A program made the translations under genes and the position numbers. DNA of 24,000 nucleotides from Alphaproteobacteria bacterium (GTDB lineage Bacteria > Pseudomonadota > Alphaproteobacteria > JBILKX01), in the NCBI GenBank assembly GCA_044376435.1, contig JBILKX010000001.1, positions 2,715 through 26,714 of the forward strand, in the 5' to 3' direction. The notes below the pieces were generated by a model. The model did no database searches and was not told the origin of the DNA. It was given only the letters and a program-made list of their open reading frames with translations. Below, piece by piece: positions 6,743 through 23,779 of this stretch. The first letter of the stretch is position 1. Each line of letters begins with the position of its first letter.

Positions 6743-6916
6743 ATGATTGATAACGAAAAAATGGAGCCGCGAGCGAAAATCTATGTTTTTCGTGAGACAG
6801 GCTTTGTTGCCCCACGCAACGACAATAGTTCGCCCCTGAAGAAACGCTTACAAAAAAGCGGTATCATGATCATTGTCTTAATTATTGTGGTGGCAACGAT
6901 TGTTTCTCATTTATAG
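6743..6916 (+). CDS. Candidate small tail-anchored membrane protein (57 aa)
   Basis: Below the ORF-track length cutoff; read by hand: MIDNEKMEPRAKIYVFRETGFVAPRNDNSSPLKKRLQKSGIMIIVLIIVVATIVSHL*. GAGG lies 4 nt upstream of the ATG. There is one C-terminal hydrophobic helix preceded by basic residues. No family recognised. Confidence 0.3.
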   Translation: MIDNEKMEPRAKIYVFRETGFVAPRNDNSSPLKKRLQKSGIMIIVLIIVVATIVSHL

Positions 6917-7026
6917 GTCACTATGAAGGGGGCGGCGCCCTATAGCTGTGGACAGGTGTCAACTGCAAAACCGGTCCTGAAAAAGCGTTTTTTTGTTGCT
7001 GTAATAAAATTTGGCTGTTTTACCTA

Positions 7027-7054
7027 TTGAAAAATTTTTTCTAAGGACTATATT
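7027..7054 (+). promoter_or_regulatory. Sigma70-like promoter candidate for the 7079 gene
   Basis: TTGAAA (7027-7032), 16-nt spacer, TATATT (7049-7054), about 25 nt upstream of the ATG. GAGG RBS at 7066-7069. Confidence 0.35.
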
Positions 7055-7078
7055 AAGATTTTATTCGAGGTCTTAATT

Positions 7079-8197
7079 ATGCGTTCAATTTTATCTGCTG
7101 CCGTATGTGTTAGTTTGTTGTTAAATCCTCTCGGGGGAGCTTGGGCATACAGTCCCAATCGTGCAACTCTCGAAGATCAGCATGCATCAAAGAAGTTAGG
7201 CAACACCCAACAAGCAGCTCAAGAGGCTGTAGAGCCCGCAGCTGATCACCCTAAAGCTAAGTCTAAGAGAGCAGCATGGATTGTTATTGGCACTATGACT
7301 GGCGTCGCTGCGATCCTTAGTATTATCATCTGGGGGGCTTTTCGCAATTCGGCGACAACTGATAAGTCAACTGGTTTGGATCAAAATGACAATCATTTTA
7401 ACGATCCCAAAACAATAAAAAACTTTGTTAAGAGTTTTACGAATCCTCCTGGGGGAAGAGGTTCTTCGACCTTTGACTCAGGTGCGTTAGGGAAGGATGA
7501 CTCAACGAAGAGAAGTCTCAATCAGCCTTTGCAATATTTGGACTTAGAAGGCTATTCACCTCAAAAGCAGCAGCAAGATTCCAGAAAAGCCAAAGAGTAC
7601 GAAGACAGAGGCAAGGTGTCTGTTGATAGCACATTTCACCCAAAAAAGGTTGCTGAGAAACTAGAGATAACGCAACCTGTTACTCCTGCAACGAATCCCA
7701 ACCCTGCCACAGTGAGCGCAACGCCCATCAGTGATGAATTTCCTTTTTTTGGAAATGAGATTTTTGTCGCATCAACAGCAGAAATCCGGGCAAATGCCAT
7801 GAAGGCTGAAAAAATGCAACACATGTCGCTTTATTATTCAGCTTTGGGAATGAGTCCAGCTAAGGCTCTTGATGAAAAAGCTCGTGTGAGTAAGAATTTA
7901 GAGCGTTCTGGCTCAGGTGCGTTAGGGGAGGATGACTCAACGAAGAGGAGTCTCAATCAGTCTTTGCGATATTTTGACTTAGAAGGGAGAAGCGATTTCA
8001 GTCAACACCAGCAGCAAGATTCCAGAAAAGCCAAAGAGTGCGAAGACAGAGGCAAGGTGTTTGCTGATAGCACATTTGTTCGACAGAAGGTTGCTGAGCA
8101 GCAGGTAGAGAAGTCTGGTGTTGCTGCAGAAACGAACACTAATAATATGGATCCTTATAAACTCCCGACCGATAACCAAAGTTGTGTAATTGCTTGA
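7079..8197 (+). CDS. Orphan repeat-containing protein with N-terminal signal-like segment, a second hydrophobic helix and a C-terminal CaaX box (CVIA)
   Basis: 372-aa ORF with RBS and promoter candidate. N-terminus MRSILSAAVCVSLLLNPLGGAWA; hydrophobic helix AAWIVIGTMTGVAAILSIIIWGAF. Contains two ~60-aa paralogous modules. The last four residues are C-V-I-A before the stop. No family recognised. Confidence 0.7.
   Translation: MRSILSAAVCVSLLLNPLGGAWAYSPNRATLEDQHASKKLGNTQQAAQEAVEPAADHPKAKSKRAAWIVIGTMTGVAAILSIIIWGAFRNSATTDKSTGLDQNDNHFNDPKTIKNFVKSFTNPPGGRGSSTFDSGALGKDDSTKRSLNQPLQYLDLEGYSPQKQQQDSRKAKEYEDRGKVSVDSTFHPKKVAEKLEITQPVTPATNPNPATVSATPISDEFPFFGNEIFVASTAEIRANAMKAEKMQHMSLYYSALGMSPAKALDEKARVSKNLERSGSGALGEDDSTKRSLNQSLRYFDLEGRSDFSQHQQQDSRKAKECEDRGKVFADSTFVRQKVAEQQVEKSGVAAETNTNNMDPYKLPTDNQSCVIA
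7477..7657 (+). repeat. Internal direct repeat copy 1 (in frame) of the 7079 gene
   Basis: ctcaggtgcgttaggg...aaggttgctgag encodes GALGKDDSTKRSLNQPLQYLDLEGYSPQKQQQDSRKAKEYEDRGKVSVDSTFHPKKVAE. It matches copy 2 at both DNA and protein level. Confidence 0.8.
7912..8098 (+). repeat. Internal direct repeat copy 2 (in frame) of the 7079 gene
   Basis: Encodes GALGEDDSTKRSLNQSLRYFDLEGRSDFSQHQQQDSRKAKECEDRGKVFADSTFVRQKVAE. It lies 435 bp downstream of copy 1 and carries a 6-nt insertion. Confidence 0.8.
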
Positions 8198-11058: not shown

Positions 11059-11496
11059 ATGCCCCCCAAGGTAGCAGTCTACACGACTTACCAGTCTGAT
11101 CCTTACAAGGTAGTCGCAAAGCTACTTGAAAAAGTGTATAGCTCTGGACAGCGTGCACTTGTGTTGTGCCCTGACGAGAAGATGGCAACCCTCGATACCA
11201 CCCTTTGGACCTACCACCCCGGTAGTTTCTTACCGCATGGTATGATGACAGATGCTTTTCCTGAAAATCAGCCTATCTTATTAGCTGACAAGAGTACTAA
11301 AGCAAACAACGCCGCGGTTTTGTTGATTGCTGGGACAACAGTGCCTGAAAATGTTAATGAATTTGAAAAAATTGTGTGGGTTGTTGATGGCGCTGATACA
11401 CAGGCAATCGCGCTTTCTGAGGCCTGGGGACGCGCCTATGTTGGTGAGGTTATATATTGGCGCCAAACCGTGGATGGACAATGGCAGATGGCATAA
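11059..11496 (+). CDS. holC: DNA polymerase III chi subunit
   Basis: 145 aa. GQRALVLCPDE.....LD..LWTY.PGSFLPHG matches the HolC signature. GAGG RBS. Confidence 0.82.
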   Translation: MPPKVAVYTTYQSDPYKVVAKLLEKVYSSGQRALVLCPDEKMATLDTTLWTYHPGSFLPHGMMTDAFPENQPILLADKSTKANNAAVLLIAGTTVPENVNEFEKIVWVVDGADTQAIALSEAWGRAYVGEVIYWRQTVDGQWQMA

Positions 11497-14400
11497 TCCA
11501 AGGCAAGGAACGCTTTGTAGGCGACATTGAGCCGCTTCTCGCTGTTGAAGCCGTAGGGCAGGCTAAGGGCACGATTCTATTCGTGGCACGTGATCGTGTC
11601 CAGGCTGAGACATTAGTAACAGCGATACCATTCTTTAGGCCGGACGCTAAGGTCATAGTGTTTCCTGCATGGGATTGTGTCCCTTATGACCGGGTGTCAC
11701 CAAGCACGGCAATCATTCAGCAGCGCCTCTATGCCCGCTGGCAATTGGAGCAAACGCAGCCAAATCAACAGTGTTGGCTTATTGTCCCTGCCGCGGCGTT
11801 AATGCAAAAAGTTGGCCCGGCGCCAAGGAGTTTCCAGCTTGGAGTTGGCGCTAGTATAGATCGTGAGCAGCTTTTGTTGTGGTTAAGTAACCACGGATAT
11901 CAGCGAGTTGATATGGTCGTTGGGCCTGGTGACTTTGCAGTACGTGGGAGCTTAATTGATATTTTCCCCAGTGCCGCTATGCACCCAGTGCGGCTTGACT
12001 GGTTTGGGAACATACTCGACACAATGAGCACCATAGATGTTGAATCACAGCGCTCTATGGACGCATGCCCAGAGCTTACTTTGTTGCCGATGACTGAAAT
12101 CATTCTCGACGCTGCAACACAGACTCGGTTTCTATCTCGCTATCGGGAAGTTTTTAATGTTGACTTTTCTGACCCGATGTACGTCTCTGTCCAACAAGGT
12201 CGAAATTATCAGGGAAGTGAGCATCTAATGCCGCTTTTTTATGAGAATGTCCTGCCCTTATGGGAGAGTATCCCCGTAAGCATGGTCGTTGTGGGTAATG
12301 GCGTTACAGAGGCTGTGGCAGCGCAGTGGCAACAGATACAAGATCATTATCAGGCACGACAAACGGTCTCTACCTTAGCGTTCACGCTCGACGCTCCGTA
12401 TTATGCCTTGTCCCCAGATTCATTGTATATGACCCCTCAAGAGGTAAGTACCAACTTAGTCAAGTATAACACACATTTCCTCCATGATAGCAAACGCCCT
12501 GAGCGATTTGAGAATCCCCCAAGCTCGGCAGCCTCCCCCCTGATGGCGATAGATTGGCTGAAACAGCAGTCAGAAGCGGCAGCGATTGTAATTGGTTGTG
12601 CGAGTCACGGTCGTCAATCGCGCGCGCGGCATATGTTAGAAGAGGCGGGGCTGTCAGTGGCCGCAGACGTCGCGACATGGTCAGAGTGTAAATCAGTGGC
12701 AGCTGGCACCATAGCGCTCGTGCCACTCGCGGTTAACGTTGCTTGGTCTTATCGCGAGCAGGGGGTACCCCTTATCATTGTTGTGCCAGATACTCTCTTA
12801 TTTGGGGCCATTGAGGTCAGTCGTGGACGCGCGCCTCAGAAGGCATCTTTAGGTATCCATGATTTAAATGTGGGGGATCTCGTGGTGCATGCCGATCATG
12901 GTGTCGGGCGGTATGAAGGCTTGATTGTGCTTGAAGTCATGGGATACCCACATGATTGTCTCCAAGTGGTGTATGCCGGTGGCGATAAGCTATTTGTGCC
13001 GGTTGAAAATATCGGTATTTTAAGCCGCTATGGCAGTGAAACCGCTGATCTGGATAAGCTTGGAAGTACGGCCTGGCAACACCGTAAAGCGCGTGTGAAA
13101 AATCGGTTGACGGAGATTGCGCACCACCTGATGCGCATCGCTGCGGAGCGCAAGACTCATCAAGGCACACTCATTGAGGCGGGCTCAGACTACACACAAT
13201 TCTGCCATAAATTCCCTTATCCAGAGACACCGGATCAGCAGCGCGCCATCAGTGACGTAATGGAGGATTTAGCCTCGGGGCGTCCGATGGATCGGCTTGT
13301 CTGCGGGGATGTGGGATTTGGCAAAACAGAGGTGGCGATGCGCGCCGCTTACGCTGTTGCAAGCCAAGGATTTCAGGTGGCTGTGGTGGTGCCGACAACC
13401 ATTCTGTGTCAGCAGCATTACGAGAATTTCCAAGAGCGGTTCCAAGGGACGGGGGTTCATATCGCGGCACTATCGCGACTTGTTCCCGATAAGCAGGTGC
13501 GTCAGGTGCGCTCACAGCTCGCCACTGGAGAGGTGCAAATCGTGGTGGCGACTCACGGTATTCTCTCGGATAAAACACAGTGGCAAAATCTAGGGCTTGT
13601 CATCATTGATGAGGAACACCACTTTGGTGTTGCCCAAAAAGAGAAGCTCAAAGAACTGCGCAGTACGGTGCATGTCTTAACATTAACAGCAACTCCCATT
13701 CCACGTACCCTACAAATGGCCCTTGCCGGCGTGCGAGATTTAAGTTTAATCACAACGCCGCCCATCGATCGACTGCCAGTCCATACGGTAGGCTTGATTA
13801 AAGATCCGCTGGTCATCCGTGATGCGATATTACGTGAAAGATTTCGCGGGGGGCAGGTGTTTTATGTGTGTCCTCGTATCGAGGATCTGGCTGTGCTCGA
13901 AGCAGAAGTGCGAGAGCTGGTCCCAGAAATGCGGATTTTAACGGCCCATGGTCAAATGCCAACTGCAGCTTTAGAAAAAGCTATGCACGCCTTCTATACG
14001 CGCCAATTTGATCTGCTGCTATGCACAAATATCATTGAGTCAGGAATTGATATCCCAACGGCGAATACCATGATCGTGCATCGTGCGGATATGTTCGGGT
14101 TGTCACAACTCTATCAGCTGCGCGGTCGTGTTGGGCGGGCGAAAGTGCGTGGGTATGCTTACCTGACAGTGACTGCGCAAGCCTACCAAATTCCTTCAGT
14201 GCAAAAACGTTTGGAAGTAATTCAGAGCCTCGACTACTTGGGCGCGGGATTTGCTTTGGCAAGTCACGATATGGAGCTGCGCGGGGCAGGTAATCTTGTG
14301 GGCAAGGAGCAATCAGGGCATATTCGTGAAGTTGGCACAGAGCTGTATCAGCAGCTATTAGATGAGGCTTTAGAAGCGGTGCGTAGTGGCGAAGTCGCTC

Positions 14401-14882
14401 CAGCTGTGGAAAATGAAGTGCAGATTAATGTGGGGATGCCGGTGATGATTCCCGAAGCGTACGTCAACAGCTTAAGTATTCGGTTGCAGCTGTATCGGCG
14501 ATTGGGGGCGGTAAAGACACAGGCAGAGATCGATACGTTGGCAGCTGAGTTCGTTGACCGCTTTGGCCCCTTGCCAGACGAGGTTAAAAATCTTCTTGTC
14601 ATCATGACGCTTAAGGTGATGTGCCGCGCTTGTAGTGTGAAAAAGCTGGATGCGGGGCCAAAAGGTATGGTGGTAACCTTTGCGCCTCAGGGGGCGGTGG
14701 ATCCGCTGCGTCTTGTCGCGTGGGTGCAGAAAAATCCAATTACCCGGCAAATCAAGCCAGATCAGCGCTTAATTATTGTCGAGCCATGGCCAGATATTCA
14801 AACGCGCGTGGCTGGGATCAAGCGGTTGTTAGCAGAAATGACCGAGGCATTTGGGGGGGAGGAGCATGGCATTCCACATTGA
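11481..14882 (+). CDS. mfd: Transcription-repair coupling factor Mfd
   Basis: The ORF opens at 11457 (TTG). I prefer the ATG at 11481 (MADGIIQGK...), which overlaps the holC stop. CarD-like RNAP-interacting domain (GDLVVHADHGVGRYEGL), SF2 helicase motifs (GDVGFGKTEVA, DEEHHFG, TATPIPRT, QLRGRVGR) and a TRG-like region. Confidence 0.95.
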   Translation: MADGIIQGKERFVGDIEPLLAVEAVGQAKGTILFVARDRVQAETLVTAIPFFRPDAKVIVFPAWDCVPYDRVSPSTAIIQQRLYARWQLEQTQPNQQCWLIVPAAALMQKVGPAPRSFQLGVGASIDREQLLLWLSNHGYQRVDMVVGPGDFAVRGSLIDIFPSAAMHPVRLDWFGNILDTMSTIDVESQRSMDACPELTLLPMTEIILDAATQTRFLSRYREVFNVDFSDPMYVSVQQGRNYQGSEHLMPLFYENVLPLWESIPVSMVVVGNGVTEAVAAQWQQIQDHYQARQTVSTLAFTLDAPYYALSPDSLYMTPQEVSTNLVKYNTHFLHDSKRPERFENPPSSAASPLMAIDWLKQQSEAAAIVIGCASHGRQSRARHMLEEAGLSVAADVATWSECKSVAAGTIALVPLAVNVAWSYREQGVPLIIVVPDTLLFGAIEVSRGRAPQKASLGIHDLNVGDLVVHADHGVGRYEGLIVLEVMGYPHDCLQVVYAGGDKLFVPVENIGILSRYGSETADLDKLGSTAWQHRKARVKNRLTEIAHHLMRIAAERKTHQGTLIEAGSDYTQFCHKFPYPETPDQQRAISDVMEDLASGRPMDRLVCGDVGFGKTEVAMRAAYAVASQGFQVAVVVPTTILCQQHYENFQERFQGTGVHIAALSRLVPDKQVRQVRSQLATGEVQIVVATHGILSDKTQWQNLGLVIIDEEHHFGVAQKEKLKELRSTVHVLTLTATPIPRTLQMALAGVRDLSLITTPPIDRLPVHTVGLIKDPLVIRDAILRERFRGGQVFYVCPRIEDLAVLEAEVRELVPEMRILTAHGQMPTAALEKAMHAFYTRQFDLLLCTNIIESGIDIPTANTMIVHRADMFGLSQLYQLRGRVGRAKVRGYAYLTVTAQAYQIPSVQKRLEVIQSLDYLGAGFALASHDMELRGAGNLVGKEQSGHIREVGTELYQQLLDEALEAVRSGEVAPAVENEVQINVGMPVMIPEAYVNSLSIRLQLYRRLGAVKTQAEIDTLAAEFVDRFGPLPDEVKNLLVIMTLKVMCRACSVKKLDAGPKGMVVTFAPQGAVDPLRLVAWVQKNPITRQIKPDQRLIIVEPWPDIQTRVAGIKRLLAEMTEAFGGEEHGIPH

Positions 14883-15360
14883 TATTTCAGTCCACGATTC
14901 GCGATGGCGGAAAGTCTGTCCATCCCTCTATCCCCATGTGCGGAAGATGGTGCGCGCGTCCGTGCAAGCGGGGATGTCAGATATAACCGCTTATGCGCGG
15001 CGAGGGGGTGTCGTGATGATTAGCGTGCTGCTCACCCACGACGCGGAGATGCAGGGCTTAAACCACCACTATCGTGGTAAGGACAAGCCCACCAATGTTT
15101 TATCGTTTGCCACCGTATCTCCAGAGATGATGCCACAGCTGTTGGTATCAAAATCTCAGCCGATTGTCTTGGGGGACATTATTATCGCTTATGAAACCGT
15201 CGCTCGCGAGGCAGTCGAGCTCAGCAAATCTTTCAAGGATCATTTTAACCACATGCTCGTGCATGGGAGTCTGCATCTTTTGGGCTATGATCATGAAACT
15301 GATGAACAAGCAGAAATCATGGAGCCACTGGAAGCAAAGATTCTGGGCGATTTGCATTGA
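14866..15360 (+). CDS. ybeY: rRNA maturation endoribonuclease YbeY
   Basis: The ORF opens at 14851. The ATG at 14866 (MAFHIDISV...) is preceded by GGGGGAGGAG. Motifs YRGKDKPTNVLSF and the zinc site HGSLHLLGYDH. Confidence 0.92.
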   Translation: MAFHIDISVHDSRWRKVCPSLYPHVRKMVRASVQAGMSDITAYARRGGVVMISVLLTHDAEMQGLNHHYRGKDKPTNVLSFATVSPEMMPQLLVSKSQPIVLGDIIIAYETVAREAVELSKSFKDHFNHMLVHGSLHLLGYDHETDEQAEIMEPLEAKILGDLH

Positions 15361-15376
15361 GTTGTTCAGGTTTGTG

Positions 15377-15408
15377 TGTATCGATCCTAAGCCAATTTCA
15401 GGACTCAC
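15377..15408. repeat. Left copy of the 32-bp direct repeat bracketing the giant gene
   Basis: TGTATCGATCCTAAGCCAATTTCAGGACTCAC versus TGTATCGATCCTAAGCCACGTTTAGGACTTAC at 22561-22592: 28/32 identical, with the first 18 nt perfect. It contains an imperfect hairpin (TCCTAAG.../...AGGA). Confidence 0.8.
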
Positions 15409-15421
15409 CATTCACGGGGGA

Positions 15422-18400
15422 CTATAGAAACTCGCGTTTCTGAGCCTGATATTCGACTTGCTGACGTAGCATCTCTTCAAGCTGGGTTTTATGCTTCTTC
15501 AACTCTTTGTGGGCGAGGTCCTGGTACAACTGCAGGTATTCGGGCTTGGCATCGGCAAGGTCGCCGTTAAAGGGAATCCCCCTTTCGTCCCGAAGCTCAG
15601 GCTGTAAGGACAGATACCGCTTGCCGAGTTTTGTGTGCATTGCGTTATCAATATTACTGCTTAGGTCCATCTGGGCGAATATGAGAGGTAGAAGCCAGCC
15701 CAGTTTACCGGCTTCAGGATTCACTGCCCTATAGTCAGAGGTGCCCTGACCAGTCCCCAGAGATAGAATGTGGACGTTCTGCTCGTAAGGTAGAATATCC
15801 TCATGGCGACGTTTGATCGCCTCCAGCACCAGCTCGGCCGGATTGTTCTTCCAGATCCCGCCATCGAGGAACGTATACGGCTTCTCTGCCGGCTTCCAGT
15901 TCATAATCTCATGGTGGCTATAGGTTGGCCTTGTGCGCCTCAGATTGTAAATCTGGGCCGACGAGAAGTAGGTTGGCGCGGCTGACGTGGCCCGCCCGAC
16001 ATCGCGCATGAGAAAATCCCAATGCGCATGCCGCTGGGCATTCCAGCTATCAAAAATGAACGGCGTAAACGGCGAAGTTGACCCATCAACCGTGGTTACC
16101 AGCACATTGGTTAAGGTGTCGCTGAGATGGAGGTCTTGAAACGAGTGACTCAGCAGGGCTTCTAAACCATCAGCTGAGTACTTGTTCTCTAAGATTCCCA
16201 TTGTCTTAGGCGTAAAGATCTTATGACCATGCTCCGTAAACAGCTTGGTCAGCTCAGCTAAGTCCGCAATCTGGCGCGTGTGCCCATCGGCAGACGCTGT
16301 ACAACCTAACGCCAGAATCCCTCCAATGGAGGTGCCGCCGAGGTAATCAAAGAGCTCATGAATCTGGAAGGCCTTCTTGGTATAATCCTTAGAACGGGTT
16401 TCCAATGCCTCGAGTATCACAGCTGGAATCAGACCACGGATGCCCCCGCCACAAATCGAAAGACCATAATAGTGGTTGGGAGTGTCTTTAGGGAAAGCGT
16501 GACGCGTGTCTGAAACGTATCCCTCCGTGGGGTTCGCAAGCGGTTTCGTCCAAAATGGCGAACCCTCATCTAGAAAGGTGGTTTGGGATATGCGCTCTGG
16601 AATCGCTGTGATGGAAGATAGTTCGTTGCCGTGAGATACCTCTTGCTTGCCGTTATTCTCCGCTCTTTCCATACCTGGGCTTTCTTCCTTCAGGATGAGC
16701 AGGTTGTAGTGGGTTAAGCCATGGGTATGAAGCGCATAGACGGTATTCCCCGTGGCGCTTGGGTTAGCGGTATGGACACAGATCACCTCCTGGGAGCTGC
16801 CTGGCTTTTTCTGCCAGACGTGAGCCTTAGTATTGGTAAGCTTAGCCAACGCATCCAGGCTGGCAGTGCTTCCAGGGATGTAGCTCAGCCACCCGCCCTT
16901 GGCGAGATAGCCCAAGACAAACTCGGTGAAGATGTCGGGGTCGAGGCCGTAGGTGTTCAGGGTGCGCTCAATGTCATCACAGATTTTGATCGCTTTGAGT
17001 AGGGCAGCTTTCTCACTGGTGTAAAATGCATCGGCCATCGTGTCGAATAGCTTGAGCAGCGCTGCCGCCTCATGGAAAACCGAAGTCTTTAAGCTGGTAT
17101 TGATCTTGCGAAGCGTCTCATCCATGTCGCTCTGGGCTTTATGGTATTGCTGGGCGAGAGCCTGACCGCCGCTGTCTTTCAAGGTCGGTGGCAGCGTCCC
17201 TGTCACTAGTGCCGCCTTGATTTCTGACTGGATGAGTTGGCGAATCTCTTTGGCGATCTCCGGTTGGTTTTGCGACTCGAGAAGCTTTTCCACCGCGGTA
17301 TCGCGGTCTAGCCCGAGCACATTAAATCCGCAGCTCGCAGCATTATGGACCGTGTCGAACTCACTCATCTTGGCTTCTTCGAAGATGAGGGTGTGGCCTT
17401 GGGGAGAAAGCTTGCCTTTTAGCGGGAGAGACACAGTGGGGAGGCTAGCGGTAGACAGCGGGATCAAGAGAGGAGACACTGGCTTTTCAGCTTTGGGGGA
17501 CGCCATGGACGGTATCTGTGTCTGAAGGAGTTGCCTGCCAGAGCTTGCCTGTCGAGAGCGGTTTCTCTCAACAGCCTCGGAGATCTCATGCCTTAGTTTC
17601 TCGCCAATCTGATTATGACTTAAGTCTAGCCATGTCAGAGCGGAATTGGAGAGGAGAGCCTGGGCCATCGATGCTGCGCCGCTGTCGCCAATCTGATTCC
17701 CCACTAAGTTTAGGTCTGTCAGAGCGGAATTGGAGAGGAGCGCCTGGGCCATCGATGCCGCCCCCTGGTCGCCCATCTGATTACTCCCTAAGTTTAGCTG
17801 TCTCAGAGCGGAGTTTGTGAGCAGAGCCTGGGCCATCGATGCCGCCCCGCTGGCGCCAATCTGATTCTGCCCTAAGTCTAGGCGTGTCAGAGCGGCGTTT
17901 GTGAGCAGAGCTTGGGCGATCGATGCCGCCCCCTGGTCGCCAATCTCATTATGCCCTAAGTTTAGCTGTCTCAGAGCGGAGTTTGTGAGCAGAGCCTGGG
18001 CGATCGATGCCGCCCCCTTGGCGCCAATGTAATTACTCCCTAAGTTTAGCTGTCTCAGAGCGGAGTTTGTGAGCAGAGCCTGGGCGATCGATGCCGCCCC
18101 GCTGGCGCCCATCTGATTATCCTCTAAGTCTAGCTGTCTCAGAGCGGAATTTGTGAGCAGAGCCTGGGCCATCGATGCCGCTCCTTTATCACCAATCTGA
18201 TTAATAGATAAGTCTAGCTGTCTCAGAGCGGAATTTGTGAGCAGAGCCTGGGCCATCGATGCCGCCCCGCTGGCGCCAATCTGATTCCACGTTAAGTTTA
18301 GCTGTGTCAGAGCGGCGTTCCTTTGAAGAATATCGGCGAAGAATTGTGCTCCTTGATCATCAATCTGATTTTGCGCTAAGTTTAGCTCTGTTAGAGAGAC

Positions 18401-21400
18401 ATCTATGAGCTCCCGTCGGAGCTTGTCTTGAGTCATAGCGCTGAGTTTTTTAAACAGATTGAGATTGAATCTGGGATACTTTTCGAGCATTTCGCGTTCT
18501 TCAATCCGGTCACAGCCTTGAAGCTTCAGGTCTGTTAAGGTTGGCGCTTGCGCTATAAGCGTTGCGAGTTCAGTTTCTGGAAGATTTTTATCGCCTTGAA
18601 AGTCGGCAGACCTTAAGAGCGGACATTGAAGAGCTAATGTGCTTAATTTGGGACAGTGCGGGAGCGCCAACTTGCGCAGCCGAGGCGTATCGAGCCCAAG
18701 TCTTTCCAAGTTATCGCACGAGCTTATCGTTAAATGCGTGAGGTTTTTCATCCTTAAAGAAGTTGATTGGATCCAACTGGACAACCATGCACGGACATCG
18801 GGAGCGACATAGATTATCTCTGTAAGCCCTGGAAGGTCGTGCAAGCTTATCGAACTCAGTCCAGGCGATGTTTCAGATAACATCACAAAAATCTGCCCCG
18901 TTACCTCGGGACACTGACTTAACTGGAGGTGGGTCAGATTCGCCAGGGTAAACTTTTGCAGAATCATATTGGTTAAGGCGTGGGTATTGAGGCTTAGTGA
19001 ACGCCACTCATAGCGTTTGAGCTCCTCAAGCCACTGTTGTTGGCTGCTGAGGGGCAGCTTCCTCAAATCTAGGTTATGCGCTAAAAACTTCTCCCGCTGC
19101 GCTTGCATTGTGAGGGACTGAAAATCCTCTAAACTCTGGCCGAGGATTTCTTTGCGTAATTGCTCTTGAATCTTTTGTAATTCAATGAGGGCGGTGTGGG
19201 GACCGATGCCAACGCCGCGCTTTAGTTGGTCAAGGGTCATTTCGTTTGGCTCGACTTTCTGCGACCTCAAAACGGCCTGCGCTGTCGTTGAGGTTATGTA
19301 ACCGCCCTGAGCGTTGGTTTTATAGTCGCCGCCATCAACCCGCTTAAACCGTTCCGCGACGGAAATATTTTCGGCCAAGATCGCCTGATAGCGTTTGCCG
19401 AGTTCAGGCTCCAATTTCATCAAAAGATCTATAAAGGTTAAGTCTGGGTTGTTTTGGTTATCTTCTAAGATTTTTTGCAACCGGATAAGATCTGCATACA
19501 GCTGCTGAATCATGAGGGGGGTAAAAGGGACGCCAATAAAAGTGGGATTATGTTTTCGACTGAGAAAGACCTTTAGCTCGTCAGGCGTGAAGAGCCCCAT
19601 ATAGCTCTCATGAATTCCAGAGACTTTTTGCAGCCATTTGGTGGTTAACTCCCCCGGGTTGAGCGTGGTGCGAAAATGGTCCCTGACCTCTTGGGGGATT
19701 TTTTCTTTCATCTGATCTAGGCAAAAGAGCACCGACTTCACTCGCACCTTGAGCTTGGTGTTGCCGTCTTTGACTTCCGTTGCAAAGGTTGGGACAAAGC
19801 TGTGATCATTGTCGACACAGGTAATCGTATATCGCGTGGTCGTGGGGTGTGAATCGGGGACAAAGGGGGTGAGAATATAGTTATCTGGCTTGCCATCTTC
19901 TGGCCGAATTATCATCGTTGAGAGCAGGATTTTGCCGAGGCTGTTCAGGTCAAGCTGGGCGAGGGAGATCGGTTTCTTCTCAAGCACGTCTTGGAGATTA
20001 TCCCCTTTGATTCCCCCTGAGATCAAGACGGGATCTTCTCCCATACGCGTCAACTCAACGTAGGGGGCGCCATGGCCCGCGAGCAGACGCATCAGTTCTC
20101 CAGCGGCATACTCCATGCCAGGGAGTTCGGGATTAAGTTTGAAGTACAGCTCATAATCTCCATGAGTAGCTCTGCCAACAGGCGCGCGACCATAGGTTTT
20201 AAGGGCTTTAAACTCTCCTTTCGGACCTGTAAGTTGCTGGAACACGTCGGGGCGTAAAAAGCGGGTTTTCTGAGTCGCAGTTTTGATAGCGGTGCCGTTA
20301 CCCTTTGAGGGCAGTAGAGTCTCAAGAGCCATGCGCCAAGCAATTTCAGGGTTTCTGGATTCTAGAATTTTTAGGGCTGTAGCAAGGGGGGACTTTGCGC
20401 TAAGCTTGACGCTCTCTTGAAAATCTTGCAAGTGCCGCCAGTGGACGTGCTTGCCGGCTCCTTTATAAATGAGGTAGGAGACAATCTCAGAAGCTTTGAG
20501 CCTTAAGGCAAGATCAAGCGCGCTTTGCCTGTTGGAGTCTAGGGTCTCGATGATTCCAGGTTGCTCAAGGAGGACCTCTAGCCGTTGAATGACTTGCTGG
20601 GGGTCATCTTTATGCTGATTAATGATCTTGTGCAGCAGGGGCTGGTGGACTTTGTCAACCCAATGGGGATTGGCGCCAAGCTTGATCAGAAGTTTAAGCG
20701 CCGCCGCTGATAAGTCTTCGCGGACGATCTGCTGCAGTACTTCTGGCTGTCTCCAGCGATCTGGGATGAGCGTTAGGTGGGCGCGTTCAGCAAAACTGCG
20801 GGTGAGTTGCTCAACCAGGCCCGGTGTGGGGGAGAGGTTTGATAAGAGATTGTGGGTTAGCTCCCGGATGGTCTGGACGTTGTCCACTTTCTTAAGTTCA
20901 AGCTCACGCAGGAGCTTAAACAAGGGCTTTGCGGAGGGTCCTATCTTGTGACTAACATCGAGGAAGTCTTCAACTGGCTTGGGGACAGTCCACGTTTTTC
21001 CGTCCATAGCGGCATAGAGATGTGCGAATCCCTTGAGCGGATCTGGGTAGAGCTTCTTGAGTTTTTGATAGTACGCGAACGTGATTGGCTGGATGGTTTG
21101 GAGTAGCTGAGTGTGAGTAAACTCCGGATGGTCTTTGAGCGTAGCCTGGACCAAATGTATTTTGCTGAGAAGCTCTGTCGTTGTGCCGCTCTTCAGTTTT
21201 AAGGGAATCCTCAGGTCGTCGGAGAGGTCCTTTGATAACTTTAAGGTGCCATAGCGTTCATTTTTAGCGTCAAGCAACCCGAGCCATTGTAATACGATGG
21301 ACTCAGGGGCTTGTGCGATAAAGTTTTTATAAATTTCTTTCTCAACAACATGATTCATCAAGGGTAAAAAATAAAGTATGTTCCTAACGTTCATGTTGTG

Positions 21401-22270
21401 CTGGCTTGTGTGCGCCCCAGAAGTGATCGGGCCGAGCTCAGGGACTAAAGCTTCGTCATTATCGATGCCGATGATAAACGCCTTCTGCTTTTGGAAGTAG
21501 ACACGGAAGTTATCACCTTTTGCATCAGCTGGGTTGGTGAGAAGGCTGCTGAGAAACAGAGCGCTAAAGTTGGCTTTATCTACCTGATCATAGCTATACT
21601 TTTTCTGACCCACACCTTGGATGAAGTCTTGCAGGCTGATGCCCTCAACCGTGCGGGAGGCTTGGAGGACGTAAGAGTGAGGGACAGGGGTGAGATAATC
21701 CTGCGCAAAGGTGGGATTTTTTTCTAGAAAAGTATCAAGAGTCTTGGTGGCGAGAGCAAGGCAATACTCGGCGTTGGTAGGGGTGTCAGGCTTAGGCTGG
21801 AGGATAGTCACGTTCTGCAAAGAGACCAGAGCCGACGGCGTTGCCCCCTGACCAACGAGTAACTTTGTGATGCAGTACATGGCTGATTCCATGCCCGGTG
21901 TTAACGGCGGCATGCCATTTGCTTTGAAGTGTACACCGTCTTTAGCAACGACTGCGTGATTACCGTCTTGGTTTATTTTTAGAAGGCAGCCATACTTATC
22001 TTTTGAGATCAGGCGTAAGGCCATTTCCTGAGAGATTGCGTAAGCCTGGTCCAAGATATCGCTGTGCATGATGACCGCATATTGTGGAGTCTGTGGCCCA
22101 ACCGGCTGAGCATTTGTGGCGTGGATCATCAAGCGGCTGAGATCTTTGATATCCTGCTCGATGATGCTCGGGGGCCACAGCCTGGTATCGCTGAGCTCCA
22201 TTGCCCAGGTGGTCTGAAGGACCAGAGAATAACATAAGGTAAGGCTCAGTATGCGTTTGAAGATTCGCAT
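15422..22270 (-). CDS. Giant (2,282 aa) secreted multidomain eukaryote-like protein: signal peptide, kinase-like 1, ANK, kinase-like 2, FBXL-type LRR, RNI-type LRR, OTU-like protease, patatin phospholipase
   Basis: A single uninterrupted ORF. AAGGAG RBS lies 7 nt upstream of the ATG (22268-22270). Domain motifs were read directly from the translation; see the sub-features. Confidence 0.92.
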   Translation of the reverse strand: MRIFKRILSLTLCYSLVLQTTWAMELSDTRLWPPSIIEQDIKDLSRLMIHATNAQPVGPQTPQYAVIMHSDILDQAYAISQEMALRLISKDKYGCLLKINQDGNHAVVAKDGVHFKANGMPPLTPGMESAMYCITKLLVGQGATPSALVSLQNVTILQPKPDTPTNAEYCLALATKTLDTFLEKNPTFAQDYLTPVPHSYVLQASRTVEGISLQDFIQGVGQKKYSYDQVDKANFSALFLSSLLTNPADAKGDNFRVYFQKQKAFIIGIDNDEALVPELGPITSGAHTSQHNMNVRNILYFLPLMNHVVEKEIYKNFIAQAPESIVLQWLGLLDAKNERYGTLKLSKDLSDDLRIPLKLKSGTTTELLSKIHLVQATLKDHPEFTHTQLLQTIQPITFAYYQKLKKLYPDPLKGFAHLYAAMDGKTWTVPKPVEDFLDVSHKIGPSAKPLFKLLRELELKKVDNVQTIRELTHNLLSNLSPTPGLVEQLTRSFAERAHLTLIPDRWRQPEVLQQIVREDLSAAALKLLIKLGANPHWVDKVHQPLLHKIINQHKDDPQQVIQRLEVLLEQPGIIETLDSNRQSALDLALRLKASEIVSYLIYKGAGKHVHWRHLQDFQESVKLSAKSPLATALKILESRNPEIAWRMALETLLPSKGNGTAIKTATQKTRFLRPDVFQQLTGPKGEFKALKTYGRAPVGRATHGDYELYFKLNPELPGMEYAAGELMRLLAGHGAPYVELTRMGEDPVLISGGIKGDNLQDVLEKKPISLAQLDLNSLGKILLSTMIIRPEDGKPDNYILTPFVPDSHPTTTRYTITCVDNDHSFVPTFATEVKDGNTKLKVRVKSVLFCLDQMKEKIPQEVRDHFRTTLNPGELTTKWLQKVSGIHESYMGLFTPDELKVFLSRKHNPTFIGVPFTPLMIQQLYADLIRLQKILEDNQNNPDLTFIDLLMKLEPELGKRYQAILAENISVAERFKRVDGGDYKTNAQGGYITSTTAQAVLRSQKVEPNEMTLDQLKRGVGIGPHTALIELQKIQEQLRKEILGQSLEDFQSLTMQAQREKFLAHNLDLRKLPLSSQQQWLEELKRYEWRSLSLNTHALTNMILQKFTLANLTHLQLSQCPEVTGQIFVMLSETSPGLSSISLHDLPGLTEIIYVAPDVRAWLSSWIQSTSLRMKNLTHLTISSCDNLERLGLDTPRLRKLALPHCPKLSTLALQCPLLRSADFQGDKNLPETELATLIAQAPTLTDLKLQGCDRIEEREMLEKYPRFNLNLFKKLSAMTQDKLRRELIDVSLTELNLAQNQIDDQGAQFFADILQRNAALTQLNLTWNQIGASGAASMAQALLTNSALRQLDLSINQIGDKGAASMAQALLTNSALRQLDLEDNQMGASGAASIAQALLTNSALRQLNLGSNYIGAKGAASIAQALLTNSALRQLNLGHNEIGDQGAASIAQALLTNAALTRLDLGQNQIGASGAASMAQALLTNSALRQLNLGSNQMGDQGAASMAQALLSNSALTDLNLVGNQIGDSGAASMAQALLSNSALTWLDLSHNQIGEKLRHEISEAVERNRSRQASSGRQLLQTQIPSMASPKAEKPVSPLLIPLSTASLPTVSLPLKGKLSPQGHTLIFEEAKMSEFDTVHNAASCGFNVLGLDRDTAVEKLLESQNQPEIAKEIRQLIQSEIKAALVTGTLPPTLKDSGGQALAQQYHKAQSDMDETLRKINTSLKTSVFHEAAALLKLFDTMADAFYTSEKAALLKAIKICDDIERTLNTYGLDPDIFTEFVLGYLAKGGWLSYIPGSTASLDALAKLTNTKAHVWQKKPGSSQEVICVHTANPSATGNTVYALHTHGLTHYNLLILKEESPGMERAENNGKQEVSHGNELSSITAIPERISQTTFLDEGSPFWTKPLANPTEGYVSDTRHAFPKDTPNHYYGLSICGGGIRGLIPAVILEALETRSKDYTKKAFQIHELFDYLGGTSIGGILALGCTASADGHTRQIADLAELTKLFTEHGHKIFTPKTMGILENKYSADGLEALLSHSFQDLHLSDTLTNVLVTTVDGSTSPFTPFIFDSWNAQRHAHWDFLMRDVGRATSAAPTYFSSAQIYNLRRTRPTYSHHEIMNWKPAEKPYTFLDGGIWKNNPAELVLEAIKRRHEDILPYEQNVHILSLGTGQGTSDYRAVNPEAGKLGWLLPLIFAQMDLSSNIDNAMHTKLGKRYLSLQPELRDERGIPFNGDLADAKPEYLQLYQDLAHKELKKHKTQLEEMLRQQVEYQAQKREFL
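15671..16474 (-). other. Patatin-like phospholipase domain (aa ~1933-2200)
   Basis: Oxyanion GGGIRG (16433-16450, verified at nucleotide level), nucleophile elbow G-T-S(1981)-I-G, catalytic Asp in FLD(2136)GG, and the conserved ATSAAPTYF block. Confidence 0.88.
16691..17368 (-). other. OTU-like cysteine protease (putative deubiquitinase) module, aa ~1635-1860
   Basis: Cys box FDTVHNAASC(1647)GFNVLG. A long helical insertion follows, then the His box NTVYALHTHGLTH(1854)YNLLI, which resembles the OTU C-terminal motif (VYLLY...GHYD.L). The Asp of the usual D-G-N-C box is not obvious. Confidence 0.4.
17603..18394 (-). repeat. Tandem 84-bp repeat array encoding about nine 28-aa RNI/NLR-type leucine-rich repeats (aa 1293-1556)
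   Basis: Unit consensus: LRQLNLGSNQIGDQGAASMAQALLTNSA. The eight core units (17639-18310) are near-identical at DNA level (recurring gtctcagagcgga(g/a)tttgtgagcagagcctgggc(c/g)atcgatgccgcc). They are flanked by a degenerate first unit and a capping half-unit. Confidence 0.9.
18506..18988 (-). other. Cysteine-containing LRRs (FBXL/AMN1 type), aa ~1095-1255
   Basis: Repeated L..L.L..C..(L/I)T pattern: NLTHLQLSQCPEVTG, LSSISLHDLPGLT, NLTHLTISSCDNLERL, LRKLALPHCPKLSTL, LTDLKLQGCDRI. Confidence 0.6.
19781..20203 (-). other. Atypical kinase-like module 2 (aa ~690-830)
   Basis: ELYFK(711)LNPELPGMEYAAGELMRLLAG; PVLISGGIKGDNLQDVL; EDGKPD(796)N(797)YIL; TCVD(820)ND(822)HSF. It aligns colinearly with module 1. 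Confidence 0.45.
20453..20758 (-). other. Ankyrin-repeat-like region (aa ~505-606)
   Basis: AAALKLLIKLGANPHWVDKVHQPLLHKII... and ...NRQSALDLALRLKASEIVSYLIYKGAG fit the ANK helix-turn-helix consensus (L..GA(N/D)....G.T.LH.A). Confidence 0.55.
21371..22003 (-). other. Atypical kinase-like module 1 (aa ~90-300)
   Basis: VHFK(116)ANG..PLTPGMESA...LL.G; hinge-like ..QASRTVEGISLQDFI; DAKGD(253)N(254)FRV; IGID(270)ND(272)EAL. This matches the Lys / Glu / D-x-x-x-x-N / DxD pattern of protein-kinase-like or PI3/4-kinase-like folds. It is paralogous to module 2. Confidence 0.45.
22202..22270 (-). other. Sec-type signal peptide of the giant protein (aa 1-23)
   Basis: MRIFKRILSLTLCYSLVLQTTWA|MEL: basic n-region, hydrophobic core and a small-x-small (T-W-A) cleavage context. 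Confidence 0.65.
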
Positions 22271-22378
22271 AGCGAGACTCCTTGAAGAAAAATAGCGACG
22301 ATGAAAAATGAATCGTGCTTAAGTTAATTTTTACAATTTTAACAAATAAATTGGCAAATAGGAAGTATATACCCAATG

Positions 22379-22416
22379 CAAATGGAAAAGCGGAGAATTT
22401 GAGAAAGGGAATTTGG
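22379..22416. repeat. Dispersed intergenic module Y, copy A (upstream of the giant gene)
   Basis: CAAATGGAAAAGCGGAGAATTTGAGAAAGGGAATTTGG versus CAAATGGAAAAGGGGGGAATTTGAGAGGGGAGTTGA at 23744-23779, in the same orientation. Confidence 0.6.
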
Positions 22417-22560
22417 CTCAGGCCCAACTAGATACGCAAGGTTTTTTCAAGCGCCGGTCGTGAGTCATAATTCCCCGCTCAAAAATCCACTTTTTCATTT
22501 GGATTGGGTATCGCCCTTAAAAACGTTCTTGGATAAAATTTTTTAAGCATTGGTTTAAGA

Positions 22561-22592
22561 TGTATCGATCCTAAGCCACGTTTAGGACTTAC
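22561..22592. repeat. Right copy of the 32-bp direct repeat bracketing the giant gene; overlaps the def stop codon
   Basis: See the 15377-15408 feature. It contains the hairpin TCCTAAGC-cac-GTTTAGGA. The def stop codon TAA is at 22582-22584, inside the repeat. Confidence 0.8.
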
Positions 22593-23217
22593 GTGACGAC
22601 TCCGCTTTGAGCTCAGCGAGCAACTCTTGTACGGCAGCTTTACCCTTGGTTTTTTCAAGCTCTTGCAGGCGTAGTGTCCACATGTCAGCTTCAAGGCCGT
22701 GAGGAGAGGATGGATCGTATAGTTCATGACACAGTTGCCCATGGCAGTGGTCAATTTCGTGCTGCAGTAATCTGGCTAGGTAGCCCTCAGCAGTGTTGCT
22801 GATCCACTCCCCGTGTTCATTTTGCCCTTCATAATGAATAACCGTATAACGGTAGACTTTGCCGCGTTCGTTTTTTACCGAAAAACACCCCTCCCAATCG
22901 AGGGTTTTGCCGCGATCTTCTACGCCACGATAAGATGGATTCAGGAGTACTGTAACAGGAACTAACTCCTTCACATCGTTCCGCCATTGTAGCGCACGCT
23001 CAGGGACATGGAATACAATGACGGCTTTCCTGTAGCCAAATTGTGGCGCAGCAAACCCAGCGGCGTTATATTCTATGAGGGCACTTTTCATCTTGTGAAT
23101 GAGGGTCTTGTCTTCATCAGATAAGGGAAATTGGACCAGTTGCGCCGGATTAGTCAAAGTGTCCGCGCCATATGAGTCTGTAATGTCGATAAGTTTTAGG
23201 GGGCTATCTAGAGACAT
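22582..23217 (-). CDS. def: Peptide deformylase, divergent long form (211 aa)
   Basis: The three PDF motifs are present: AAGFAAPQFG (motif 1, variant of GxGxAAxQ), WEGCFSV (EGCLS) and QHEIDHCHG (HExxH). There is an extra N-terminal ~35 aa and a helical C-terminal tail. Confidence 0.85.
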   Translation of the reverse strand: MSLDSPLKLIDITDSYGADTLTNPAQLVQFPLSDEDKTLIHKMKSALIEYNAAGFAAPQFGYRKAVIVFHVPERALQWRNDVKELVPVTVLLNPSYRGVEDRGKTLDWEGCFSVKNERGKVYRYTVIHYEGQNEHGEWISNTAEGYLARLLQHEIDHCHGQLCHELYDPSSPHGLEADMWTLRLQELEKTKGKAAVQELLAELKAESSRKS

Positions 23218-23270: not shown

Positions 23271-23346
<76 letters not shown>

Positions 23347-23395
23347 ATATGGTTATGGACCCTACTTGGTTTGCTTGTAAAAGTCAACCTGTTTT

Positions 23396-23469
23396 TGGAG
23401 GCCAGGACCGGAATCGAACCGACGTACAAGGATTTGCAGTCCTCTGCATGACCACTCTGCCACCCGGCC
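23396..23469 (-). tRNA. tRNA-Cys (anticodon GCA), CCA encoded
   Basis: Reverse complement: GGCCGGG-TG-GCAG-AGTGGTC-ATGC-A-GAGGA-CTGCAAA-TCCTT-GTAC-GTCGG-TTCGATT-CCGGT-CCTGGCC-T-CCA. The discriminator U and the short D stem are typical of tRNA-Cys. The T stem has two G-U pairs. Confidence 0.85.
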
Positions 23470-23743: not shown

Positions 23744-23779
23744 CAAATGGAAAAGGGGGGAATTTGAGAGGGGAGTTGA
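23744..23779. repeat. Dispersed intergenic module Y, copy B
   Basis: Matches 22379-22416. It lies in the AT-rich non-coding region to the right of the tRNA pair. Confidence 0.6.

Follow-up and report, generated by a model that had tools for sequence, protein, structure and literature searches.

Target-site duplications made by transposases span 2-14 bp. An example of 8 bp is given in a study that also deals with elements inserted by tyrosine recombinases at the 3' ends of housekeeping genes, the att repeats of which are 8-60 bp long (PMC5704250). The att repeats of integrative elements include the 3' end of the housekeeping gene, and an element that keeps attL and attR after its integrase has been lost is termed a CIME (PMC5704250). 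The locus described here, in which a giant gene is bracketed by a direct repeat, carries a familiar kind of signature, and a short direct repeat beside an accessory gene would not surprise a specialist. As in the att repeats of integrative elements, the repeat is short (32 bp), has an identical core (18 nt) and contains in its right copy the stop codon of a housekeeping gene, def. The cognate integrase of an island, IME or CIME was found neither in the bracketed segment nor elsewhere in the 86 contigs of the assembly, which contain only XerC and XerD.

The locus lies in a stretch of 24,000 nucleotides (the window) from a genome of 1,505,924 bp. The source bacterium is an uncultured, symbiont-like, deep-branching and host-associated alphaproteobacterium. 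Two 32-bp sequences in the window, DR1 at 15377-15408 (core 15377-15394, arm 15395-15408) and DR2 at 22561-22592 (core 22561-22578, arm 22579-22592), neither assigned to a strand, are identical in 28 of 32 positions, have the same orientation and lie 7,184 bp apart; their cores match perfectly over 18 nt. The preliminary description of this DNA had given the same coordinates, orientation, spacing, identity and core, all of which were borne out. The repeat exists and greatly exceeds what chance would produce. When the core was searched for with up to three mismatches, the window yielded two matches, as against an expectation of 0.01 from dinucleotide shuffles, and two matches were obtained in none of 100 shuffles. 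Throughout the genome, on both strands, DR1 and DR2 each match only themselves (32/32) and their partner (28/32). The third-best ungapped match of a 32-mer is 20/32, and reversed-query controls reach 20-21/32. Because it is unique in the genome, the repeat is not a member of a REP, MITE or terminator family. A REP or terminator sequence occurring many times in the genome, which the preliminary description had named as the alternative to its own reading, is excluded by the genome-wide search, which found two copies only, and by the lack of a shared fold; a REP/BIME, a dispersed intergenic repeat and a generic terminator are all ruled out with two copies in 1.5 Mb and a background of 20/32. Nor is it an intrinsic (Rho-independent) terminator, as the hairpin of 6-7 bp is followed by no U-tract and neither copy was reported by a terminator scan. 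The core had zero matches in viral contigs.

The two copies occupy corresponding places with respect to genes. To the left, ybeY (14851..15360, plus strand), which encodes an rRNA maturation RNase, is convergent with the giant gene and borders the putative insertion site on the left. DR1 lies 16 nt past the stop of ybeY and 13 nt 3' of the TAG stop codon of the giant gene (15422-15424). DR2 overlaps the TAA stop codon (22582-22584) of def (22582..23217, minus strand), the putative target gene, which encodes a peptide deformylase of 211 residues with a long C-terminal tail. The arm of DR2 carries the last three codons of def and its stop, such that the repeat takes in the end of a housekeeping gene, which stays intact. 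The arm of DR1, read on the minus strand, is GGT GAG TCC TGA, the stop being in the same position as that of def in DR2. Two consecutive genes read in the same direction each have one copy at their stop or at most 13 nt from it, in agreement with the earlier placement of the right copy over the def stop and of the left copy near the 3' end of the giant gene. All of the differences between DR1 and DR2 are in the def-proximal arm (4/14) and none are in the core (0/18). According to our calculation, the chance that all four mismatches fall in the 14-nt arm is C(14,4)/C(32,4) = 0.028. This clustering fits the recombination of two similar, non-identical sites better than a staggered-cut duplication of 32 bp followed by neutral drift.

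The edges of DR1 and DR2 are sharp on either side, as expected for a junction repeat. The preliminary description had seen a weaker, gapped similarity extending leftwards and had proposed the duplication of a ybeY-def junction segment of ~75 bp. Anchored at the repeat edge, the leftward extension (GGTTTGTG vs GGTTTAAGA) attained a score of 2, which was matched by 289 of 1000 dinucleotide shuffles and also reached by 214 of 1000 random genomic 70-mers. The rightward extension scored 0, and unanchored alignments of the repeat flanks were likewise non-significant. The leftward similarity is no better than that of shuffled sequence, and the ~75-bp duplication, with an anchored extension that is not significant, is not upheld. 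No YbeY-like reading frame or ybeY pseudogene fragment was found to the left of DR2.

The giant ORF (15422..22270, minus strand) is the sole coding cargo between DR1 and DR2. It encodes 2,282 amino acids, with a patatin phospholipase domain at the C-terminus and RNI-type LRR_6 repeats, whose block is made of tandem units of 84 bp at about 17518-18489. No full-length homologue was found among 5.8 billion proteins. The closest matches of the LRR block are eukaryotic NLR-type proteins, and partial homologues occur in effector- and transposase-rich contexts; the gene is of the host-manipulation type. The bracketed segment also contains the 5' region of the giant gene (22271..22367, minus strand), presumed to comprise promoter and leader, and a MITE-like element (22368..22511, without assigned strand) of 143 bp with 26-nt terminal inverted repeats, whose family gives 258 BLAST HSPs in 58 of the 86 contigs. 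Between the MITE and DR2 are 49 bp of unique, AT-rich DNA (22512..22560, no strand assigned), which putatively form the right end of the insert and have no similarity to the 3' end of ybeY. Apart from the MITE, non-coding DNA in the segment amounts to only ~150 bp as a possible former site of an integrase, and no integrase, excisionase, transposase or recombinase domain was found in it. In the whole assembly of 86 contigs, there are two tyrosine recombinases (PF00589), one XerC-like and the other XerD-like. The genome contains recA. In composition, the giant gene (GC 0.513, GC3 0.587) is like ybeY (GC 0.512, GC3 0.582) and mfd (GC 0.519). Relative to the whole genome, its GC3 is at the 99th percentile of ORFs and its tetranucleotide distance at the 98th, the codon-usage distance being at the 87th percentile only. 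A comparison of composition, suggested earlier as a check on foreign origin, yielded no signature separating the giant gene from its flanks. Overall, the observation made in the preliminary description is confirmed in part and its interpretation is supported in part.

Relatives were searched at several levels: DNA against 30 relatives, proteins against the five nearest, Def scans of genome and metagenome contigs, and an order-level search. The studied genome is the sole member of its order among the species genomes compared. In the nearest relatives, Caedibacter and Caedimonas-like MAGs, Def is 46-57% identical. Near their def genes, none of ybeY, mfd, the giant gene or the tRNA pair upstream of def was found, and the gene order is not common to them. 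The exact YbeY sequence has no record in public assemblies. The C-termini of the relatives' Def proteins and the DNA downstream of their def genes gave no match to the def-like arm, these relatives being too divergent.

Of the explanations considered, we prefer one in which DR1 and DR2 are attL/attR-like junction repeats, left by a segment that recombined into the 3' end of def, as in a decayed integrative element. In our judgment it has about an even chance of being correct. We infer that the repeat originated at insertion, and likewise the direction of the event and the enzyme. Ancestrally, ybeY and def would have been convergent, with ~37 bp between their stops. The incoming segment would have carried only the giant LRR-patatin gene with its 5' region; the MITE may be a later arrival. 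If the incoming DNA already held an arm resembling the 3' end of def, the one now seen in DR1, while the resident def ended in CGT AAG TCC TAA, a crossover inside the 18-nt block, now identical in both copies, would have allowed def to retain its own end and stop and would have placed a def-like stub, with its stop equally positioned, behind the giant gene. As no integrase remains, the candidate enzymes are an integrase since lost, an integrase acting in trans, or RecA, through one crossover that brings in a circle over a short homologous stretch. Loop-out of the giant gene via the repeat is predicted to yield ybeY, a single copy of the repeat and an intact def.

The genome contains roughly eight LRR genes, and two besides the giant gene show a repeat-gene-repeat layout with repeats unrelated to that at def. 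On contig C82 (4828/6850), two copies of a 62-nt repeat, identical at 61/62 positions, lie one behind an orphan gene and the other behind a 588-aa LRR gene, with the convergent icd adjoining. On contig C11 (14500/15948), the recG promoter together with the first 13 codons has been duplicated as a stretch of 93 nt, which flanks an LRR gene of 365 aa. Three other candidates were rejected: the pair at C14 39423/42851 belongs to a dispersed motif, that on C18 is a tandem paralogue pair, and that on C10 has a third copy on C55. Three LRR cases with three unrelated repeats of differing length argue against one site-specific recombinase. They raise the possibility, which we regard as unlikely, of a recurrent, integrase-independent loading of eukaryote-like LRR effector genes beside housekeeping genes, with tens of target bases being duplicated. 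Such a process would perhaps account for 32 nt at def, 62 nt beside icd and, at recG, 93 nt from the promoter and 5' end, in three of the ~8 LRR genes. A further tentative feature of this scheme is that the newcomer would gain a copy of a host signal while the gene end or promoter that it interrupted is made whole again. The genome has a high background of local duplication, in tandem paralogue arrays and MITEs, so that repeat-gene-repeat layouts are not rare in it. A genome-wide scan of upstream versus downstream flanks was dominated by tandem arrays and MITEs and provided no clean test of enrichment.

The same three cases bear on an unlikely alternative at def itself, a non-site-specific duplicative insertion. 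A staggered break in the ybeY-def spacer, or an MMBIR-like template switch there, would have copied ~32 bp to both sides, as a long target-site duplication for which no homology in the incoming DNA is required; the identity of the core would then be due to selection or gene conversion. Three LRR genes flanked by unrelated target pieces of different length are more simply explained in this way than by three att specificities, the absence of an integrase is accommodated, and in a compact genome presumably only those insertions survive that restore the interrupted gene end. The distribution of mismatches speaks against it. Because the core is non-coding in both copies whereas half of the arm is constrained by def, neutral decay should strike the core at least as often as the arm, and the observed distribution has, by our calculation, a P of about 0.006-0.03 under neutral decay. 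In addition, the length is beyond that of transposase duplications (2-14 bp) and the ends of the insert lack terminal inverted repeats.

Alternatively, the 18-32 nt could be a functional cis element of two adjacent 3' untranslated regions, such as a protein-binding or RNA-processing site, that is kept by selection and was duplicated separately from the arrival of the giant gene. A perfect core beside a diverged arm would be explained by such selection. Both copies are on the same strand and in the same place relative to a stop codon, and in the 6-7-bp hairpin of the minus strand the single stem difference still pairs as G-U. We nevertheless consider this explanation rather unlikely. With no third copy in the genome even at 21/32, the element would serve two genes only, and the sequence was not found downstream of def in the relatives examined. 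The minimum-free-energy folds of DR1 and DR2 differ, and with z-scores of +0.83 and -1.10 neither is stabler than shuffled sequences; a U-tract is absent, and the repeat has no match in Rfam.

It is improbable that the repeat is the remnant of an older and larger local duplication, tandem or an ectopic conversion patch, the rest of which was deleted or has diverged. The genome is rich in local duplications, which include 305 exact local repeats of 18 nt or more, many of them in tandem paralogue arrays, but outside the 32 bp neither side shows similarity in DNA or protein, and the unique interior of 7.1 kb demands added deletion steps. Moreover, the giant gene is not a paralogue of def, and the C-terminus of the giant protein has no homology to the tail of Def. 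A chance similarity or an assembly artefact is extremely improbable: although by our calculation chance alone should give ~0.4 exact direct 18-mer pairs within 20 kb over the 1.5-Mb genome, which is a fragmented MAG of 86 contigs, the adjoining 10/14 matches and the placement at consecutive gene 3' ends lower the calculated joint probability to less than about 1e-4, a mis-join by an assembler requires a repeat longer than 18 nt, and the composition of the giant gene matches that of its flanks.

If DR1 and DR2 are the footprint of an insertion, the repeat marks the limits of an acquired segment and dates its arrival, the cargo being a 2,282-aa eukaryote-like effector in an order known from a single genome. 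It would also lead to a testable prediction, an empty ybeY-repeat-def site together with a circular form. That two more LRR genes show parallel footprints hints at a way in which a reduced genome devoid of an integrase may gain host-interaction genes while its essential neighbours remain unbroken.

Several known systems resemble the locus to different degrees. A transposon or IS likewise ends up between copies of its duplicated target, but the 32 bp found here exceed the 2-14 bp of such duplications, the insert ends lack terminal inverted repeats and the segment contains no transposase domain, which rules out a transposon-type duplication; the MITE that lies within the segment represents an insertion of its own. 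IMEX elements and pdif modules share with the locus a single-gene module between short repeats, and Xer proteins are the only tyrosine recombinases here. In pdif modules the flanking sites are in inverted order and are not direct repeats. The 32-mer lacks the architecture of dif, with its 11-nt inverted XerC and XerD arms and 6-nt spacer, unlike the best dif-like site of the genome at C36:3080, TTAGCATAAT-TTTTAT-TATGCCAAAT, and a Xer/dif-dependent module was rejected.

In a Campbell-type single crossover, the insert is flanked by a direct duplication of the homologous stretch, whose copies become mosaic when the donor differs from the recipient, and RecA is present in the studied genome; in contrast to that system, there is no known source of the circle. 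In E. coli, 18-32 bp do not exceed the shortest length over which RecA-dependent exchange is usually efficient. The tRNA-associated islands with attL and attR also have accessory genes between imperfect direct repeats with an identical core, and tRNA genes are nearby: tRNA-Asn(GTT) and tRNA-Cys(GCA) (23271..23469, minus strand) lie upstream of def, outside the bracketed segment. They are not part of the repeat, in which no tRNA similarity was found, and def separates them from it. The present segment differs further in lacking an integrase and in comprising 7 kb and one gene rather than tens of kb. Of the single-gene island beside a tRNA pair that had been proposed, the bracketing of one gene and its 5' region is supported and the relevance of the tRNA genes is not.

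The comparison with a CIME or 3'-end genomic islet has its differences as well. Here, no cognate integrase is encoded genome-wide (XerC and XerD only), the interior consists of a single gene with little other DNA, neither sister elements nor a second att specificity are known, and excision and integration are putative. To our knowledge, def is not a documented integration hotspot. The likeness to the CIME (PMC5704250) lies in the flanking direct repeats, which are 8-60 bp long in those elements, in the target gene, whose 3' end is contained in one repeat with the gene undisrupted, and in an interior that is free of integration and transfer genes and carries accessory cargo of the host-interaction type.

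The giant gene of the window (15422-22270, minus strand), a 2,282-aa ORF whose product carries RNI-type LRR_6 repeats and, at the C-terminus, a patatin domain, is bracketed by a 32-bp direct repeat. As the preliminary description had it, the left copy, DR1 (15377-15408; TGTATCGATCCTAAGCCAATTTCAGGACTCAC), and the right copy, DR2 (22561-22592; TGTATCGATCCTAAGCCACGTTTAGGACTTAC), have the same orientation, lie 7,184 bp apart and are identical at 28 of 32 positions, with a perfect 18-nt core. In an ungapped scan of both strands of the whole genome (1,505,924 bp in 86 contigs, the window lying on C79), each 32-mer matched itself and the other copy and nothing else above 20/32, a value also reached by reversed-sequence controls. 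This places the repeat far beyond chance and shows it to be real. With just two copies, it is not a dispersed REP- or terminator-type element either, an alternative that the preliminary description had named as a refutation.

Both copies are located at the 3' ends of genes on the coding (minus) strand. DR2 contains the stop codon and last three codons of def (22582-23217, minus strand), CGT AAG TCC TAA. DR1 begins 13 nt past the TAG of the giant gene and reads GGT GAG TCC TGA, with the stop at the homologous position. This TGA lies in the reading frame of the giant ORF and is separated from its TAG by seven codons (SPVNGES; 15398-15424, minus strand), and the ORF may formerly have ended inside DR1. 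To the left are mfd (11457-14882) and ybeY (14851-15360), both on the plus strand, and beyond def lie tRNA-Asn and tRNA-Cys (23271-23469, minus strand). Between the giant gene and DR2 follow about 98 bp of 5' region (22271-22367, minus strand), a 143-bp MITE-like element whose ends are 26-nt inverted repeats (22368-22511) and 49 unique, AT-rich bases (22512-22560). The element, the one copy between def and the start of the giant gene, belongs to a family whose copies measure approximately 145-170 bp and carry terminal inverted repeats of 26 nt (ATACCCAATGCAAATGG...); this family yields 258 BLAST HSPs on 58 of the 86 contigs of the 1.5-Mb genome (C5, C9, C82, C77, C6, C14, C13 and others); a fragment is also present at 23744-23769.

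Of the 199,900 species genomes searched, no other belongs to the order of this genome, and the 30 relatives compared share only its class. The best Def matches in genomes and metagenome contigs, from Caedibacter varicaedens, Caedibacter sp. 38-128 and alphaproteobacterial MAGs, are 46-57% identical, and none of ybeY, mfd, the giant gene or the tRNA pair was found within 10 kb of these loci. The nearest Def homologues are from Caedibacter and Caedimonas-like endosymbiont MAGs. In G005, the nearest genome compared, ybeY resides in an intact ybeY-corC operon of the usual kind and the Def orthologue is on a different contig, whereas in the genome under study corC is at C67:7343-8050 and ybeY follows mfd, facing the giant gene. 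Judged from gene order, this indicates that the DNA downstream of ybeY is rearranged in this lineage.

No full-length homologue of the giant protein was found among 5.8 billion clustered proteins, only partial matches: eukaryotic NLR/NLRC5-type proteins match the LRR block at 31-39% identity, and the others are to ankyrin and patatin proteins. Two partial homologues are encoded away from ybeY and def, on contigs with many WD40, Kelch and ankyrin proteins or many Tn3/IS240 transposases. Nine in-register 84-bp tandem units at 17518-18489 encode 28-aa RNI-type LRRs; compared with a reference 300-nt copy they show 61-85% identity, and their best protein matches are eukaryotic NLR/NLRC5-like. Relative to the whole genome the giant gene is atypical: its GC of 0.513 (genome mean 0.463) falls at the 98th percentile of 6.8-kb windows, its GC3 of 0.587 at the 99th percentile among ORFs of 300 aa or more, and its tetranucleotide distance at the 98th percentile. 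Codon-usage distance, however, reaches only the 87th percentile, and the adjacent core genes are similar (ybeY, GC 0.512 and GC3 0.582; mfd, GC 0.519). Composition is thus ambiguous and marks no boundary at the repeats. The segment from DR1 to DR2 encodes no recombinase. The genome has only two PF00589 proteins, by NCBIfam one nearest XerD and the other nearest XerC, which are its only tyrosine recombinases; RecA is encoded.

All four mismatches between the copies fall in the 14-nt arm adjoining def and none in the 18-nt core, for which the probability under random change over 32 positions is 1001/35960 = 0.028. Neither copy of the core is coding, whereas the DR2 arm has 11 of its 14 positions in def codons; by our own calculation, allowing for these codons, the pattern would arise with a probability of about 0.006 if a 32-bp duplication, perfect at first, had decayed neutrally. 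Therefore, either the core is under selection at both sites or the arms were never identical. Arms that were never identical would be the expected product of recombination between similar but non-identical sites. The evidence best supports integration of a single-gene islet at the 3' end of def, with the 32-mers as its junction repeats, a proposal we hold to be evenly poised because no recombinase, empty site or compositional boundary has come to light. Two similar, non-identical sites would have recombined by exchange inside the identical block, and the arm that today follows the giant gene would have arrived with it, mimicking the def 3' end (G-E-S-stop versus the resident R-K-S-stop).

The rival that survives best is a sequence-independent insertion that duplicated its target, and it draws on other loci of this genome (1.5 Mb, 46% GC, with many tandem paralogue arrays). 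A census of unique local direct repeats (14-mer seeds occurring exactly twice genome-wide, 0.3-20 kb apart, flanks not otherwise homologous) left a handful of isolated pairs. A 62-nt repeat (61/62 identical; C82:4828-4889 and 6850-6911) occurs just 3' of two genes, an orphan of 282 aa and an LRR gene of 588 aa, with convergent icd adjoining, a geometry matching that of DR1, the giant gene and DR2. On C11, 93 nt comprising the promoter, leader and first 13 codons (MEKSVAQ...) of recG are copied upstream of a 365-aa LRR gene (14500-14592 and 15948-16040), with intact recG after it; insertion of this LRR gene apparently duplicated the 5' end of recG. Orphan genes without a Pfam domain are bracketed by 73 nt (70/73; C21:14155 and 15161; 277 aa, an EVE-domain gene adjoining) and by at least 139 nt running to the contig end (C13:43186 and 44823; 488 aa, ftsW adjoining). 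After recO, a module of about 330 nt (C20:3543-3873 and 7018-7360) brackets a trpR-like gene and an ABC-transporter operon; its 93-nt near-perfect non-coding part, which overlaps the recO stop, is better conserved than the far more diverged small ORF that follows. Three of the approximately eight LRR genes show the repeat-gene-repeat layout, and they support the idea that accessory genes arrive here with duplication of the target, a lead only, since the count is post hoc in a genome where tandem arrays and MITEs form a high background. Because the three LRR-gene repeats are unrelated and differ in length, they argue against a single site-specific integrase and so favor sequence-independent insertion; the confinement of mismatches to the arm counts against duplication followed by neutral decay.

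According to a further scenario, the repeat is a functional 3' element, for which its position behind two genes might be taken to speak. However, the copies share no common RNA fold (DR1 forms a 7-bp hairpin, DR2 favors other pairings; stabilities indistinguishable from shuffles, z-scores +0.83 and -1.10), neither is followed by a U-tract or listed by the terminator scan, and an Rfam search returned the two tRNAs and nothing at the repeat. The repeat does not derive from a tRNA, and the 18-mer is absent from viral contigs. Nor is the 32-mer a dif-like site, as it has no palindromic arms; a candidate chromosomal dif with the usual palindromic arms, the best genome match to a relaxed dif pattern, is at C36:3080-3108 (GGTTAGCATAATTTTTATTATGCCAAATA).

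A remnant of a larger duplication fares worse. The preliminary description had extended the similarity leftward to a duplicated ybeY-def junction of about 75 bp, but gapped alignment anchored at the left edge (GGTTTGTG versus GGTTTAAGA) scored only 2, a score attained by 289 of 1000 dinucleotide shuffles and by 214 of 1000 genomic 70-mers drawn at random, and that anchored at the right edge scored 0. Unanchored local alignments of the flanks were unremarkable and no frame left of DR2 resembles the YbeY C-terminus; the repeat spans 32 bp and its edges are sharp. Chance similarity is essentially excluded: the 18-mer, with up to three mismatches allowed, occurs exactly twice in the window, where dinucleotide shuffles predict 0.01 occurrences.

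The repeat reported here, then, is real, neatly delimited and of a familiar kind. Integrative elements that insert at 3' ends of housekeeping genes leave the target undisrupted and are flanked by att repeats of 8-60 bp (PMC5704250); DR1 and DR2 most closely resemble these repeats, bracketing a segment at the 3' end of def. The nearest specific class is that of the CIMEs, with which the segment, likewise without a recombinase, may be compared: in these the integrase has been lost and both attL and attR are kept (PMC5704250).
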